Source of the DNA: a virus
Lineage: Duplodnaviria > Caudoviricetes
Reading direction: 5' to 3' (one strand)
DNA length: 64,000 bases
Virus record (IMG/VR): IMGVR_UViG_3300031993_000017
This document shows positions 3,285 through 29,330 of the stretch, one piece after another. The position numbers and the translations under genes are program-made. The notes beneath the pieces are model-generated. The model made no database searches. It worked only from the letters and a program-made list of their open reading frames with translations, and was not told the origin of the DNA. Position 1 is the first letter of the stretch, and each line of letters starts with the position of its first letter.

Positions 3285-4553
3285 ATGAAATTATCAACAT
3301 GGAAATGTAGTTTGAAACATCTTACAGCGAAACAGTATGAATATCTTAGAGAAATGTGTCATCTTAGTAAGAATGTGTATAATGAATCTGTATATAACAT
3401 TCGGCAACAGTATTTCCAAGAAGGTTCATATCTTCGATACGAAGCGAATTTCAGTATAATGAAGTTTTCTGAAAATTACATCAATTTAGGTTCAAATGTT
3501 TCTCAGGCTACAATGAGATGTGCAGATCAATCTTTCAAATCATTCTTCGCTCTTTTGAAGAAAGTAAAAGACGGTGTCTATGAAAATTGGAAAGTAAAAC
3601 TTCCACATTACTTAGATAAGGATGGAGTCTATCCAGTTACGTTCATACATGCTGGTGAATCTAATTATTCTAGTGGAAAATTCAAAATCCCAATGTCTAA
3701 GTATCTTAGAGACAAGTACAATGGAATGAAATTTTATATCGATGTTCCAGAATATGTTCGTGACAAGAAAATACATACAATATCAATCGTACCAAAGTAC
3801 CATGGAAAATATTTTGAAGCAAGATTTGTATTTGAAGAAAATGATGTTACCGAATCACATATTGATTATAATTCTGCATTGAGTATTGATCTTGGAGTAA
3901 ATAATTTTTGTACCTGTGCAACTTCCACCGGAGAATCTTTTATCATTGACGGAAAAAGAATAAAGTCTATCAATCAATGGTACAACAAAGAAAATGCCAG
4001 ACTGTCAAGCATAAAAGATTTGCAAGGAATCAAAGGTTGCACAAAAAGACAATATTTATTAGCCAGAAAACGAGAACGTAGAATTGATGATTTGATTTAT
4101 AAGTCTGCAAAGTACATAGTTAATTATTGTATTGAACATCAGATTGGTAATATTGTTGTAGGTTACAATGATGGTTTCCAAGATCGAGTTAATCTCGGTA
4201 AAGTAAATAATCAAAAGTTTGCAATGCTACCATATGGAAAGTTGAAGTCAAGGATTCAATATCTTTGCACAAAATATGGAATAAACTATGTGGAACAGGA
4301 AGAATCTTATACATCTAAGGCGAGTTTCTTAGATCGTGATGAAATTCCGAAATGGAATCCATTGAACCCAAAGCAAGGGGAGTTCACAGGTAAAAGGATA
4401 TATCGTGGACTGTATCAAACAAAAGATGGCATTCTGATAAATGCAGATGTGAATGGAGCGTTAAACATACTAAGAAAAAGTAGCGTTGTGAGTTTAGAGA
4501 CTCTATACAGTAGCGGCGTTGTCCTTACGCCTACAAGAGTTAGAATCCTGTAA
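3285..4553 (+). mobile_element. tnpB: TnpB RNA-guided endonuclease (IS200/IS605 family, IS1341-like, no tnpA)
   Basis: SIDLGVNN (RuvC-I), IVVG at RuvC-II with alternative Glu in EESYTS, INADVNGALNI (RuvC-III); ATG 3285 after SD AAGGAGGTG. Confidence 0.9.
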
Positions 4554-24671: not shown

Positions 24672-26939
24672 TTACATTTCCTTTCTAGAATTTTTAATTG
24701 AATAAGCCATCATCCTCCCGTAGAGAGTTTCGTTCTCTATCATATCTAGAAACTCTTCCCGAAGTATACGTCTTTTAACGATGTAGTCTTCGATGTTTTG
24801 TGTATACATCTCTGACACAACACCGTTTATTCCATGTGCAGGATCTCCCTTAGGTTTGCTACCATCAGGTTCATTGTAAACAGGTAACAAGTACTCCATT
24901 TCTCTAAGATGGTACTGAATCCATTTTATTTCTTCTGGATCAGTTGTATCAACCGACTTAGGTTTTGGATACTTACAAGGAAACTCTTCTCCATACCAAC
25001 GAAGTGTAGTAGTTACATCACACTTAGATGGGAACGGCAAGAAGTTAGCAGCTTCGCACATTATACTAGAAAGAAGTCTTCCACCTTCTTCCCAAGCCTC
25101 CATTGGAACTTCGGCTAATAACTCATCGTGGACGGGAATGAGTAATCTTCCGCATATCTTCTTCCAATCGGGGCTATTTTCTAGCATTATCATAGCAAGT
25201 TTTGTTTGGTCGGCCGCACTCTATATTACTATATCTTTCAAAATAGTACAGACTATATCTTCTGAATATGTTAAAACATTCAGTTCACCATTTCAACTGG
25301 TAACTCATCTTCCAGCTTACTCCTCAACAACGAGGATAGTCGTTACACTTTAATTTCTACTTTAGTCCAAGCATGTAATGTAGAAATTCTTAGCACGGTA
25401 TCACCTGCTATCCATTTCTGGACCGTAGGCTCTCTTAGTCAGCTGCTTCGTCATTTGAAATATGTATATCGCTTTAGCTTAGATACATTGTCTTATTCTG
25501 CTGATACCGTTAGCACTGCAATTATGCAGCACACCTATGAGTAATGTAGTTAGATGAATAAGGGCAGTGCAGCGGTCTACCCTGTATCATAGAATTCAGT
25601 GTCTGACGAGATCCGTCTTGAATCTTACTACGATTGTTAGTAACTCGTATGTGCTCATTCTCGTACAATTCTTTTATTCTAGGAGCCATCTGCCCCATGT
25701 ACTTGTACTGTTTGAATTCTTTGCACAATTCATCTTTTATTCTCTGCGGAATATCCGAAGATTCTTTTAAAGTAGAAGGATCTAAAGGATCTACATCCGG
25801 ATTAACGTATCCTTTCATTGCAGAAAATTCAAACTCGGGTAACTGCATCTCAGGAATATGTCTACGCCTCCCAAGTATTGTTTCAACATATCCATACTTT
25901 CGTGCAAACGCCTGTGCAGATTTCATAAGTGCTAAGATTCCAGGAAATGCTTTCAGAACAGAATCATATACTTTCTGAGCAGATTTCAATTTCTCCTCTT
26001 TTGTCATATCGTCGCGTTTGCCATACAACTGATCTGCAATAGACGGAATAGCACGACCATAGGTTATCAAATATGGTAAAATTTAGACTATATCATTACC
26101 GTGTTGTTCAACGGTACTTTGCGCTTCCGATGGTAACTCATCTTCCACCGTACAATTAGTCGTTAGACCTTATCAAGAATATTCTCGATCTTGGCACAGG
26201 ATTTGCATCAGCATTCCCTGTTAGCAGATTGATAAAGTGATCATTTCCTATCACACCAATTAAGTTCAATCCACACCCATGAGTAATATGGTTCACAAAG
26301 TTTTCATTCTACACTACAAGAGAACAACTTGTGTAGACGGGGCATAACCTTTTTAGTTTACCCAATAGTATTGTTTTTGCTTCTCCTCGACGCTTCTTAC
26401 CGTCAGGTTGGTACTCACCTGTTTCTGGATGAAACTCCAAACATTTTTCATATGGAACATTGAATGATAAACTTGCAATTCCTGCGTAAATGTCCCTTCC
26501 GTCTTGGAAGGTCTTTATCATTCCTTTATCACCGCTTATAAAAGCAGTTAATCTTGGTTCTTGTGCCTTGAACCTGTATTATGAATGTTCGCTACACATT
26601 CTCTCCGATCACTCGGAGTATCGGACTATATCTTAACACTGAAATTCTGTTACCAAATTTGCAGTGTTCCCTACGTTTCCACTTCGCTTGAAGCGTACTC
26701 TACTCGCTTGGTTATCTCAATTGACCTAGCACTACAGCTATTTATACATTTCTGTAAATGTCAATTTCTAGCATTCGATAGTCTCTACGGTTGTAAATTA
26801 TACAACCTCGGTATCGCCTTATTGTCGGTAAGGTTTCACCGATTTATAGGGTTTTACTACAGCACACAATTCTACTGTAGTCAGAAGACAACATTACATA
26901 GGCCGGGGTCTGTATCTGTATCTTCCAATCGCTTGACAA
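24672..26939 (-). CDS. polA: Family A DNA polymerase, C-terminal (palm/fingers) subunit; exons 26939-26874, 26566-26360, 26067-25579, 25220-24672 (~436 aa)
   Basis: Splicing restores motif A SSDYS|AQEPR, motif B RRGEAKTILLG|ITYG and IQG|SAAD; motif C VHDE; TTG start 7 nt after SD GGAGGTG. Confidence 0.85.
25221..25578 (-). ncRNA. Group I intron 4 in polA (358 nt, no ORF)
   Basis: Exon ends CAGGGU pairing with IGS GCCCU; P10 GCUGCACU/AGUGCGGC; GUAACGACUA and AAGAUAUAGUCU core; terminal G. Confidence 0.9.
26068..26359 (-). ncRNA. Group I intron 3 in polA (292 nt, no ORF)
   Basis: Exon GGGU/IGS GCCC; P10 GGUUAU/AUAACC; AACGACUA and GAUAUAGUCU core; terminal G. Confidence 0.9.
26567..26873 (-). 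ncRNA. Group I intron 2 in polA (307 nt, no ORF)
   Basis: Exon ACUACAGU/IGS GCUGUAGU; P10 UUGUGU/GCACAA; AGAGACUA and AAGAUAUAGUCC core; terminal G. Confidence 0.9.
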
Positions 26940-29330
26940 CCTTAACCACCTCCACTTCATTATTTTTCAATATAACTTCATCTCCGACGGATAAAGTGTT
27001 TACCGTTTTCATGCCATTTGGTGTATAAACTTTGTCATATCTTCCAAGTGCTACTGTAATTTCAGATTCATCTTCAACACACGCTAGTACTTTATCCATA
27101 GGAGGTGTTGCTCTGAACATATGTCGAATATCTGTTGCATGTGATGGAATATTTTGCATATTCAAAAATATTTGTGGACTATATCTTCGATACCCTCAAT
27201 CATAATTGACGAGTATTGTTCGGCATTTCGAAAAGTAAATAGTTACTTTCCTACTCCTTTATTGGATAGTCTCTGCACCTTACACAATTTTCGATACAAT
27301 GCATGAATTTTACCATGTCCACTGATTGTTGCTAAAGCAAGATTATGTATATCATTGTTCATTTTATCTCCATCAATGTGATGAACAATGAAACCTTTTG
27401 GAATCTCTGTAATACCAAGTGCTTGACACATTACAACACTGTGATAAAACACGTACCCAGATCCTGCCCTTCCTGTATACCAATCAGGCTTCAGAACCAT
27501 AAGATATCCATGTCCGTCTTCAACAAATTCCCTGTAGTTTGGATGTTGTTCTCTAGTCTTACCCGTCATTGGATTCTTATCACCAAGTTTTGATAGCGTA
27601 TACAGTCTCGCTTTTCGTTTATCTTGATACTCTTTTGTAAAATTATCATCGAGTATCATTTTGTAGACATAGTATTCAATTTTCGCTTCTTTAACAATAT
27701 CTTCCTGTCTCATGTTGGTGTTTGCATACAATCCACACACCAATTGAATAAGTTCCTCATCAACAACCTTTTTAGTAGTTGATTTGTTTTTATGGTAAGC
27801 ATGTATACCGTTTTCAAACATTACACGTCTTAGTGTATCCTCTTTAAGAGTAAACTTATTGCAGGTTTCTTCAACCGTGTGACCATTTTCAATGAATGAT
27901 CTGATTGCGGATATTGTTTCTTCATTAAATTGTATCTTACGCATATCATGTACCTCCAAAGGTAGATATATGTGTGTCTTGGCTCATGGTTATGCAACTG
28001 CCCTTCCATGAGTTAACCGAATTTTATGACCCCAATATGCTTTCTTAGGGTCAGCAGATGAAAGCCTGCCCGTATTGGCCCCAATTTGTTTGAACTGTGC
28101 ATGAATTCTACTATCGGATGTAGTAGCATTTGGCATCTTGTCAACAAATGTGCTGAGAAGTACTCCAATACTACGAACTTTCAGTATTTGATTTACTACA
28201 GGAATGTTCAACTCTGCAAGTACGTCCTTGTCTGTACTCATCTTGCCGTCTCTATCTGGCGGAGTGTTCAACACAGTATAAATCAAATACTTGGTATGAA
28301 CAGGGGATTTAGGATTAAAATCTTTTCCGCTAAAAAATGGTTGCTTCACTTTAGAGGATTGAATATTTACGACATGTTCTTTTAAAACACCATCAACCAT
28401 TTCTGCCAGTCGAGCTTTTTCTGTGAGCTCTAATTCATGATATCTTGCCTGAACTACACTAGCAACATCCTTGTCAATGAATGCACCGATTCTGTGCATA
28501 TTTTGACAAATTGGAATGAGTGGAATTTCTACATTCCACACAAGATCTGCAATTCTCTCCAGATGTGCTTTCTGGCACTTAGGAGACATCTTATCAAGAT
28601 ACTTGATTTCAAAGAGATACAATTCATAGGTAATCTTAGCATCGTTTGCTGCATACAGACCTGCAACTTCAGGTTTGCAGTAAGGGAACAGTTCTGGCGA
28701 GAAGAAATCACTAAACTTCTTAGGATCACCTTTTCCCTTCAGTACATATTTGTTATAAAGTTCCTTCAATCCATTCTTCAGTTCATTTTCTTTCAAGCAT
28801 CTCCAGGCAAGAATTACATCAAAATAACACACCTTGTTCAAATCTACATGAAGGTCTTTGTAGATCATAGCTAAGTCGAAATCCGCATTAGCAAAAACTA
28901 ACTTAACATTGTTGTCTGCTAGTCGTTGAAATTCAGAAGAAACATCTTGATAACTTAACTGGTTCTTGTAAGGAACATCAAATATAGGAACAAGATGCTT
29001 CATAGGAATGTATATCTCAGATTCACCTGGATAATACAATGAAGCTCCTACGATTGTATCTTTGATCCTATCCAGTCCTGTTGTCTCGGTATCTATTCCA
29101 GCAATACCAAAATCAATCAATCGAGAAACATATTCATGAAGTTCTTCTTTAGTAGTGACTAGCCTAGCAGTAGAATCTTTGAAATATTCAACAACTTCTT
29201 TTGATATTTCGTTCAATTTATCTATTACACTGCTAGATTTCATAGATGATTTAGGCGGTTGCAGAGCAGAATTACTCTGCTCTGCAGCCTTGTTTATCTT
29301 ATCCATTTGGTCTATGCTGAATAAACCCAT
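26881..29330 (-). CDS. polA: Family A DNA polymerase, N-terminal subunit (3'-5' exonuclease plus thumb); exons 29330-28047 and 27162-26881 (~521 aa)
   Basis: ExoI DTETTG, ExoII NADFD, ExoIII YAAND; TGRLSSADP|NMQNIP joined by splicing; ends in a Hint-like tail and TGA. Confidence 0.85.
27163..28046 (-). ncRNA. Group I intron 1 in polA (884 nt) carrying an HNH endonuclease gene
   Basis: Exon UGACCCU/IGS GGGGUCA; P10 GCAUAUU/AAUAUGC; CAGAGACUA and AAGAUAUAGUCC core; terminal G. Confidence 0.92.
27243..27959 (-). CDS. Intron-encoded HNH homing endonuclease
   Basis: VHHIDGDKMNNDIHNL...H...H; lies inside intron 1. Confidence 0.88.
   Translation of the reverse strand: MEVHDMRKIQFNEETISAIRSFIENGHTVEETCNKFTLKEDTLRRVMFENGIHAYHKNKSTTKKVVDEELIQLVCGLYANTNMRQEDIVKEAKIEYYVYKMILDDNFTKEYQDKRKARLYTLSKLGDKNPMTGKTREQHPNYREFVEDGHGYLMVLKPDWYTGRAGSGYVFYHSVVMCQALGITEIPKGFIVHHIDGDKMNNDIHNLALATISGHGKIHALYRKLCKVQRLSNKGVGK

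Follow-up and report, generated by a model that had tools for sequence, protein, structure and literature searches.

How is a DNA polymerase made from a gene whose reading frame ends just where its catalytic motif A should be read? The question is raised by polA, a family A DNA polymerase gene in a 64,000-nucleotide (nt) stretch of IMG/VR record IMGVR_UViG_3300031993_000017, a virus of the Caudoviricetes; this whole stretch is referred to below as the window. In the second of five exons the upstream open reading frame (N-ORF) stops, and motif A lies in the +1 frame, within an overlapping downstream frame (C-ORF) that has its own Shine-Dalgarno (SD) sequence and start codon. We observed the break together with a conserved independent start of the downstream half, four classes of allele at the site, GIY-YIG genes among these alleles, and no conserved intein catalytic residues. 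An original prediction, made from the letters of the window, had proposed a two-subunit PolA with its break inside a non-splicing Hint-like module, and the comparative data supported it. We consider it probable that this PolA is a non-covalent two-subunit enzyme (N, 521 amino acids (aa); C, 436 aa), carrying the relic of a cassette without its endonuclease, in which a leader on C completes a Hint-like domain on N.

Structure of the polA locus

The exon map was based on tblastn searches with the PolA proteins of Clostridium phage FA88 and Bacillus phage Flasso, on Rfam group I intron matches, and on intron-less relatives, which are cited here by handles beginning with L or P. FA88 and Flasso PolA covered all five exons. 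Alleles of relatives that lack the inserted segment are called empty. The features needed below, all on the minus strand, are as follows.

29330-24672, minus strand: polA, family A DNA polymerase gene, in five exons
29330-28047, minus strand: exon 1
27162-26874, minus strand: exon 2
26566-26360, minus strand: exon 3
26067-25579, minus strand: exon 4
25220-24672, minus strand: exon 5
26884-27162, minus strand: exon-2 part of the N subunit, 93 codons (NMQNIPS...CNVVF)
26904-27102, minus strand: inserted segment, 199 nt relative to empty alleles (RATP/GYVMLSSDYS), placed by colinearity with Flasso, FA88 PolA and L030
26947-26953, minus strand: GGAGGTG, SD of the C subunit, within N-ORF codons E-V-E-V and 7 nt before TTG 26939
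26874-26939, minus strand: exon-2 part of the C subunit (TTG start, leader, P-AYVML palm strand, SSDYS)
26881-26939, minus strand: overlap of N-ORF and C-ORF, 59 nt; frame 0 reads KRLEDTDTDPGLCNVVF and stop, frame +1 reads MSSDWKIQIQTPAYVMLSS
26881-26883, minus strand: N-ORF stop TGA, 56 nt downstream of the C-ORF start
26567-26873, minus strand: group I intron 2 (Rfam RF00028), directly 3' of DYS

Homology and motifs A, B and C (DYSQxEPR, RRxxAKxxxxGxxYG and VHDE) place the product among family A PolA proteins (PF00476 with a PF01612 exonuclease). The window polymerase reads DYS/AQEPRL, RRGEAKTILLG/ITYGR and PVHDELLAEVP at these positions, and both Pfam domains were found in the ORFs of relatives. 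The nearest PolAs of isolated phages are only ~33% identical to it.

On the minus strand, frame 0 of exon 2 reads NMQNIPSHATDIRHMFRATPPMDKVLACVEDESEI...VGDEVILKNNEVEVVKVVKRLEDTDTDPGLCNVVF and then TGA at 26883-26881, and motif A (AYVMLSSDYS) sits in the +1 frame relative to the N-ORF. The TTG at 26939 opens MSSDWKIQIQTPAYVMLSSDYS, and from it the +1 frame reads SSDWKIQIQTPAYVMLSSDYS to the end of the exon at 26874. Because intron 2 follows directly after DYS, it fixes the +1 frame as the one in use at the end of exon 2. The exon ends after AGT, its ACUACAGU pairs with intron 2 GCUGUAGU as a P1 helix with U-G at the splice site, the Rfam group I match (26894-26602) scores 50.2 bits, and the junction DYS/AQEPRL is identical to that of the intron-less allele L030. 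The stop, the frame of motif A and the SD 7 nt before TTG, all named in the original prediction, were confirmed at their coordinates, and its product sizes of ~521 and ~436 aa agree with those given by the exon coordinates.

The N subunit, from exon 1 and its part of exon 2, comprises the exonuclease, the thumb, the first palm strand and most of the inserted domain (521 aa). The C subunit, 436 aa after splicing of its exon-2 part to exons 3-5, starts with an amphipathic leader of 10 residues in the window (SSDWKIQIQT) and carries motif A, including the catalytic Asp, as SSDYS. The N-ORF tail PGLCNVVF is the motif A DNA read out of frame; more generally, the conserved tail D-P-x-L-C-N/D-V-V-F is the P-A-Y-V-M-L-S-S DNA read one base earlier.

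An in-frame ATG at 26960-26958 (minus strand), 21 nt upstream of TTG 26939, has no SD; its product would begin MKWRWLRL-SSDW. Upstream starts without SD occur inconsistently in a few relatives too, and the conserved start is the SD-linked one at the M-S-x-x position.

Recurrence of the break in relatives

With the 94-aa ORF as query, an exhaustive HMMER search returned 77 relatives, most of which stop exactly at the position of the window, irrespective of whether the called ORF is 93 or 660 residues long. An alignment-based scan of IMG/VR yielded 80 loci on contigs of up to 250 kb; the relatives are located on phage contigs of 80-250 kb. Other searches were empty. Among 50,697 records of isolated phages, megablast matched nothing to the region and tblastn nothing to the 94-aa ORF. 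A word-indexed search for longer insert-bearing proteins gave no match (here the exhaustive HMMER search was needed), nor did an IMG/VR scan with exon 1 as a single sequence, where the alignment-based scan succeeded.

Split loci from independent assemblies (ENA, Logan and IMG/VR) numbered 32 when counted as distinct, window included. In all 32, where a start was found, an SD of 4-7 matching bases lies 3-12 nt before the C-ORF start codon, which is ATG in 21, TTG in six and GTG in five; at one further locus, L051, the search found no SD-preceded start. The leader before YVMLSSDYS has 9-14 residues, except for one locus with 32. The two ORFs overlap by 17-65 nt in 13 of the 32 loci (12 relatives and the window), and in the other 19 the C-ORF starts 2-2123 nt after the N-ORF stop. 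L004 has AGGAGGT and then TTG-TCA-AAT, L005 has AAGGAGGT and then GTG, and L006 has GAGGAGGTG and then ATG. In L003 the ORFs are un-overlapped: the N-ORF ends ...DPALCDVVF and stop, and after a spacer, AAAGGAG and 9 nt, an ATG opens MSNNWKIKVKTPAYVMLSSDYS, followed by an intron.

These are two cistrons, each with its own translation signals, as in genes-in-pieces, with SD and start in 32 loci and spacers of up to 2.1 kb. The proposal that the second subunit is translated from its own SD and TTG gained from this comparison, as the SD and start are conserved in the relatives, ATG, GTG and TTG interchange, and the cistrons stand up to ~2 kb apart. The same comparison answered whether homologous phage polA genes break at this site with a conserved SD, as the 32 loci do.

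The stretch of L003 at 4250-4400 contains the motif A coding sequence twice. Copy 1 forms the out-of-frame N-ORF tail, and its +1 frame has ACG in place of the relatives' start and then meets a stop; copy 2, which lies ~85 nt further downstream, starts at an ATG behind an SD of its own, and a group I intron comes after it. L003 looks like an un-overlapped version of the arrangement in the window.

To judge from the sequences, the break is far beyond chance or error, because it recurs in many independent assemblies. The break might instead be an indel introduced into the CCCC run by assembly or sequencing, or the gene might be a pseudogene that is decaying in a defective phage; a 4-nt homopolymer does lie at the frame switch. 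However, the same frame relation is seen in the 12 other overlap-type loci from independent assemblies, many of them without any homopolymer, and comparison with the relatives would exclude an indel in the assembly of the window itself. Both ORFs are otherwise intact, the splice junctions of all four introns are kept, and the relatives reside on the 80-250-kb phage contigs. We find either form of this explanation scarcely credible.

A programmed +1 frameshift at GAC-CCC-G (26910-26904), which the original prediction listed as an alternative, would give one full-length product reading ...TDTDP-AYVMLSSDYS and make the internal start incidental. CCC-N is a shift-prone site for tRNA-Pro, and CCC GGC occurs at the proposed site in both the window and L004. 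It is found only in these two: L005 has TCC ACC, L003 has CCT GCC, and L006 has no run of C. Neither a conserved shift site nor an adjacent stimulator, as in prfB-like or CCC-N shifts, was found, and no stimulatory SD or stop adjoins the site. In L003 the first copy runs into a stop in its +1 frame, and past the spacer the true motif A is read from a separate ATG; in 19 loci the halves are separate by up to 2.1 kb. A frameshifted product would moreover be without the two conserved last strands of the inserted domain. The frameshift is therefore unsupported across the family and very unlikely.

Allele classes at the insertion site

Frame 0 of the 199-nt insert encodes a Hint-like beta domain; in its last third the +1 frame supplies the C subunit with its SD, start codon and leader. 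As TP occurs at either end of the insert, the boundaries can be placed only to within 6 nt. A search of the insert ends for a target-site duplication or inverted repeats found just short, chance-level repeats, the repeated TP amounting to 5-6 nt.

Four classes of allele were found at the site: empty, fused in frame, split, and split with a gene in the gap. Empty alleles read ...MFRATP-GYVMLSSDYS-(A/Q)QEPR... without gaps and colinear with Flasso MFQAGPGRVLVGSDFSQQEPR, the sequence at the site being ...RATPGYVMLSSDYS... Fused alleles (L013, L015 and L019; P0031, P0042, P0057 and P0061) carry an insert of ~80-95 residues in frame. At nine distinct loci a GIY-YIG-like ORF of ~230-245 aa, starting M-I-I-Y-K-x-T-N-K-x-N-G-K-x-Y-I-G-Q-T, lies between the halves, and all three of these nine ORFs that were scanned with Pfam scored above the PF01541 cut-off (E 2e-7 to 1e-10). 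One cassette-encoded GIY-YIG ORF is that at L057:3322-4026.

The gap between the polymerase halves is a landing place for other genes. It holds a dATP/dGTP diphosphohydrolase-like gene at L014:3282-3761 (N-terminal domain E 2e-16), 600-aa zinc-finger DUF7487/Mom-like proteins at L017:3270-5105 and L022:3567-5351, and a PAPS-reductase-like gene beside a GIY-YIG-like ORF at L069:2121-3104.

A quick maximum-likelihood tree built from exon 1 (69 rows) shows the states interleaved. The window groups with its nearest relatives, the two empty alleles L030 and L036, with support of 97; L009, which is split, groups with L055 and L056, which are empty; and the empty state requires at least 11 changes on well-supported branches. 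Because the allele states are patchy on the polymerase tree, the distribution suggests that the insert is a mobile cassette. The original prediction had called the module domesticated, and this now looks doubtful, as both the patchiness and the alleles with GIY-YIG genes speak for a selfish cassette of which the module is a relic.

Nature of the inserted domain

The insert is an open frame with protein homologues. No Rfam match was found in 27162-26895, even at E <= 1, and its RNA fold was no better than that of shuffled sequence (z = 0.56). The earlier statement that this stretch has no group I intron features held on both counts, and we rejected removal of the insert at the RNA level.

Sequence similarity to Hint domains was weak but came up repeatedly. 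Pfam Hint_2 matched the insert with E 9.5e-4 in the window and 1.2e-5 in the best relative, and PT-HINT with E 3.5e-3. The best PDB sequence match of the window insert in phmmer was the gp41-1 split intein (E 0.08), and a family profile gave E 0.01 against the gp41-1 intein and E 0.05 against a bacterial intein-like domain. AlphaFold2 models were confident and all-beta both for the fused relative L019 (predicted local distance difference test (pLDDT) 87, ~95 over the insert) and for the window N-ORF (pLDDT 79.5). In a fold search with the fused relative the top six matches were all inteins, spanning the intein end to end, and structural alignments gave 24-26% identity to inteins vs ~10% for most other matches. 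The best structural matches (MchDnaB-1 6riy, gp41-1 6riz, PI-SceI domain I 1gpp, Hedgehog 1at0 and the bacterial intein-like domain 2lwy) had a root-mean-square deviation of ~1.9 A over ~60 residues, from the first to the last Hint strand. The matches of the fused relative agree with a resemblance of the tail to Hint domains; Foldseek against the PDB returned nothing significant.

Hint ancestry of the insert has moderate support. The split could also be real with the insert an ordinary lineage-specific beta-barrel, into whose loop genes had landed; the halves would then be held mainly by the palm sheet of the polymerase itself, as plain genes-in-pieces. The end-to-end intein matches, the identity gap to other folds, and the independent sequence matches to Hint_2, PT-HINT, gp41-1 and the bacterial intein-like domain argue against this. 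So does the manner of its occurrence: the domain travels with a presence/absence polymorphism, and its two parts flank an endonuclease as split-intein halves do in fractured genes (PMC2677866). We regard an origin outside the Hint fold as unlikely.

The residues needed for splicing are missing. At Hint position 1, where inteins have a nucleophile, the window has the Ala of VALGRYD and the family has A, S, T, Q, E or K. The Cys that had been read as the first residue of an intein is frequent, lies 10 residues upstream of this position in L019 and ~11 in the window, and is absent from L005, L010 and P0034 among others; that assignment was given up. Block B TxxH is found in neither the window insert nor the fused relatives, and the domain lacks the stretch that would connect its N-terminal strands to the block-F-like strand. 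Where an intein would end in His-Asn with Cys, Ser or Thr at +1, the leader of the window ends ..IQT-P/AYVML; across the family the position before the junction holds Q, K, R, N, S or T, and T, V, A, P, G, E or Y stands at +1. The second ORF thus has no His-Asn/nucleophile junction in the window or in relatives, as the original prediction had said. Canonical protein splicing, in cis or in trans, is excluded as far as sequence can tell, because no conserved catalytic residue of inteins is seen at any of the four places (position 1, TxxH, His-Asn and the +1 nucleophile).

An atypical split intein, with for instance a Gln/Thr junction, might nevertheless ligate the halves in trans and remove the insert. 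Host halves, Hint-like pieces and an endonuclease gene standing free are laid out as in those fractured genes whose split inteins are active (PMC2677866), and the best PDB sequence match of the window insert is itself a split intein. Across the family, however, position 1 varies among six residues, the upstream Cys is missing in several members, there is neither TxxH nor His-Asn, the junction residues are varied, and fused alleles retain the same motif-less insert within a continuous protein. Such splicing, suggested earlier as an alternative, is unsupported and highly improbable.

A partition with KVLA as the native palm strand and C..AYVML as an entire intein was rejected: relatives do not conserve the N-side residues as a hydrophobic strand, and empty alleles read RATP-GYVML.

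Predicted association of the two halves

In fused alleles the domain ends in three strands: a first with the pattern V-x-S-I-E, a second that is hydrophobic (TISFD, LITFKIV) and, after a loop of 6-10 residues, an amphipathic strand (SIRHT, YQIKHE, WQITVK), which is followed by (T)P and the palm strand. Split alleles have the stop, the SD and the start in place of that loop, so that the C subunit begins with the last strand as its leader. The last insert strand of the fused alleles aligns with the leader of the split forms, and in the fold alignments it corresponds to the final strand of inteins.

A complex was modelled from the exon-2 product of the L009 N-ORF (96 aa) and the first 40 aa of the L009 C-ORF, with three controls. 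The interaction prediction score from aligned errors (ipSAE) was 0.71 vs 0.01 for the best control, at least 86% of contacts agreed between runs, and the partner pLDDT was ~51. The mark applied was reached by 58 of 80 solved complexes and by 2 of 110 mismatched pairs; solved split-intein complexes may partly account for the pass of the L009 model. Confident contacts joined leader residues 2-14 to domain residues 17-26, 35-46 and 64-70. The co-prediction of the two products that had been proposed as a check was thus favourable for the L009 fragments, which stood in for the products of the window. This model supports completion of the Hint-like domain by the leader through strand complementation. 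The module is thus predicted to hold the two halves together, and the two pieces would assemble into an active enzyme.

A 7-nt CACCTCC at 27107-27101 is complementary to the SD GGAGGTG, as had been noted. The match is peculiar to the window (ten relatives have 5 nt or none), and the further idea that it regulates the second start is unsupported, as it is not conserved in relatives.

Proposed origin and its strength

We propose that the cassette is seated in a phage family A DNA polymerase, in the loop of the beta hairpin that immediately precedes motif A. A full cassette would consist of ~65 codons of a dead, reduced Hint-like domain fused in frame to the upstream half and ending in a stop, a free-standing GIY-YIG homing endonuclease gene, and an SD with a start codon and ~10 leader codons that run on into the downstream half. 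The phage of the window has no endonuclease here, and its halves overlap by 59 nt. The polymerase would be made as N (exons 1-2) and C (TTG 26939, exons 2-5), with the insert removed by neither RNA nor protein splicing. The C leader would add the last beta strand to the Hint-like domain of N, much as a short C-terminal split-intein fragment completes its partner, and the palm strands ..HMFRATP and AYVMLSSDYS would be brought together so that the active site is rebuilt non-covalently. The polymerase may tolerate the cassette because the hairpin is restored once the two protein pieces of the cassette come together again.

Loss of the endonuclease may have led to compact forms like the window, in which the C-ORF starts inside the N-ORF and the N-ORF ends within out-of-frame motif A codons, and loss of the stop and start to fused forms. 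The opposite order, invasion of a fused form by the endonuclease, is equally possible and would match the split-intein model of Dassa et al. (PMC2677866). From these alleles we infer that the cassette is mobile.

Several observations weigh against this account. Recombination between polA alleles, rather than homing, could also give the patchy distribution. Cassettes with GIY-YIG genes were found only in a more distant clade (30-37% exon-1 identity), and the clade of the window has other genes or nothing in the gap. Hint_2 at E <= 0.01 was reached by just 3 of 52 family members, to which the null Foldseek search is added. The complex model concerns fragments outside the polymerase context, from L009 and not from the window.

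Comparison with known systems

In fractured genes, the source of the gp41-1 split intein, split inteins accompany a free-standing homing endonuclease between the gene halves, and loss of the endonuclease was proposed as a later step (Dassa et al. 2009, PMC2677866). The polA locus resembles them in that the interrupted gene is essential for replication and is broken at a conserved catalytic site. An N-terminal Hint piece closes the upstream half and its C-terminal complement opens the downstream half, and in relatives of the window the halves flank an endonuclease gene on the same strand. In the window itself no free-standing endonuclease separates the halves, whose ORFs overlap by 59 nt. Unlike fractured genes, the polA of the window has no splicing residues and its halves would not be ligated; the C piece is one strand of ~10 residues (~35-40 residues in gp41-1), and the domain is reduced to ~75-90 residues. 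The endonuclease is of the GIY-YIG type, the host is a family A polymerase, and fused alleles keep the insert.

Genes-in-pieces without an intein are represented, as cited in PMC2677866, by nrdA of phage Aeh1, split by mobE (Friedrich et al. 2007 PNAS), and by the split gp43 of Aeromonas phages 25 and 44RR (Petrov and Karam). In that account, as in polA, an essential phage gene has been broken by a homing endonuclease into two cistrons, each translated from its own signals. Active enzyme forms when the pieces join again without a covalent bond, which was experimentally shown for NrdA and is only predicted for the polA of the window. Unlike these cases as they are cited there, the polA cassette brings a folded beta domain on one half and the missing strand on the other, and polA is cut within the active-site beta hairpin and not between domains. 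The extra protein of the cassette appears, from the model of the fragments, to act as an assembly clasp.

The insert is like mini-inteins and Hint domains in its adjacent N and C termini, as needed for insertion into a hairpin loop, and in a weak sequence similarity. Unlike mini-inteins it has neither the block B region nor any of the catalytic residues, is about half their size, and has an extra N-terminal strand pair that carries the frequent Cys.

In phage T4 the topoisomerase gene 60/39 is split with the mobA endonuclease, and the 50-nt interruption is bypassed in translation. Both there and in polA an endonuclease-associated cassette in an essential phage gene carries its own means of preserving gene function. 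Unlike the T4 case, where ribosomes bypass an untranslated gap, the polA insert is translated and two proteins are made.

In the literature searched by full text we found no account of a family A polymerase that is split and carries a Hint-like module incapable of splicing. The layout is that of known fractured genes and genes-in-pieces; new are the absence of splicing chemistry and the assembly domain borne by the cassette.

Introns and other insertions in polA

Intron 1 (27163-28046) contains a 238-aa HNH ORF at 27243-27959 (minus strand), the L003 homologue of which has a Pfam HNH_3 match. Introns 2-4 have no ORF; the Rfam gathering score was met by intron 2 only, introns 3 and 4 scoring 37 and 30 bits.

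Canonical inteins (C...HN followed by S or T) occur at other polA sites in P0003, P0007, P0012, P0020, P0034, P0042, P0045, P0057 and P0061. A common site in relatives lies just upstream of NxQNIPS (G-R-M/C...HN/S-S), and another near motif C in P0057. The polA genes of the relatives are hot spots for introns, inteins and endonucleases.

Two anomalies at motif A itself were seen in endonuclease-bearing relatives. The N-ORFs at L057:3007-3261 and L058:3007-3264 end in IEIICDDYS and IEIFWSDYS, each before a stop; these are in-frame relics resembling motif A, and a second, presumably functional motif A follows the endonuclease gene. In the diverged IMG/VR relatives L028 (3971-4060), L029, L037 and L061 the C-ORF reads ...SSDYS-TAG-TCA-CAGCAAGAACC, that is DYS, stop, S and QQEPK, with the in-frame TAG and one Ser codon (UCU UAG UCA) conserved within motif A. 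The C-ORF is otherwise clean for a further 306-349 codons in L028, L029 and L061, and the sequence of L037 ends after 74 residues. Global recoding of TAG appears unlikely because TAG also ends ordinary long ORFs in L029 and L037. Skipping 6 nt at this TAG would give the canonical DYSQQEPK; ribosomes might hop by +6, a suppressor tRNA might read the TAG, or the change might confer target-site immunity.

Significance

In a widespread group of large phages, known from metagenome and virome assemblies, polA is liable to be called broken or frameshifted, and its two ORFs should be annotated as subunits. On current thinking, an endonuclease cassette persists in an essential gene either because it splices or because it has landed between domains. 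The polA cassette cuts the hairpin in which motif A presents its catalytic Asp, and seems to make up for this with an assembly module of its own, derived from an intein-like fold. We put forward tentatively, with slightly less than even confidence, that this is a third way for a homing-endonuclease element to reside in an essential gene, beside the RNA splicing of introns and the protein splicing of inteins. A dead minimal split Hint (~65 and 10 residues) would serve as a purely non-covalent clasp, and the polymerase would function as two chains despite the cut in its active-site hairpin. All stages, empty, endonuclease-bearing, split without endonuclease and re-fused, exist in nature, so that the life cycle of the element and the fate of non-splicing inteins can be tested. 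If the interpretation is true, the locus would represent a natural intermediate for the persistence of inteins after loss of splicing and would be a source of very small self-assembling protein tags; if binding is confirmed, the 10-residue strand and the ~65-residue domain would form a compact heterodimerisation pair.

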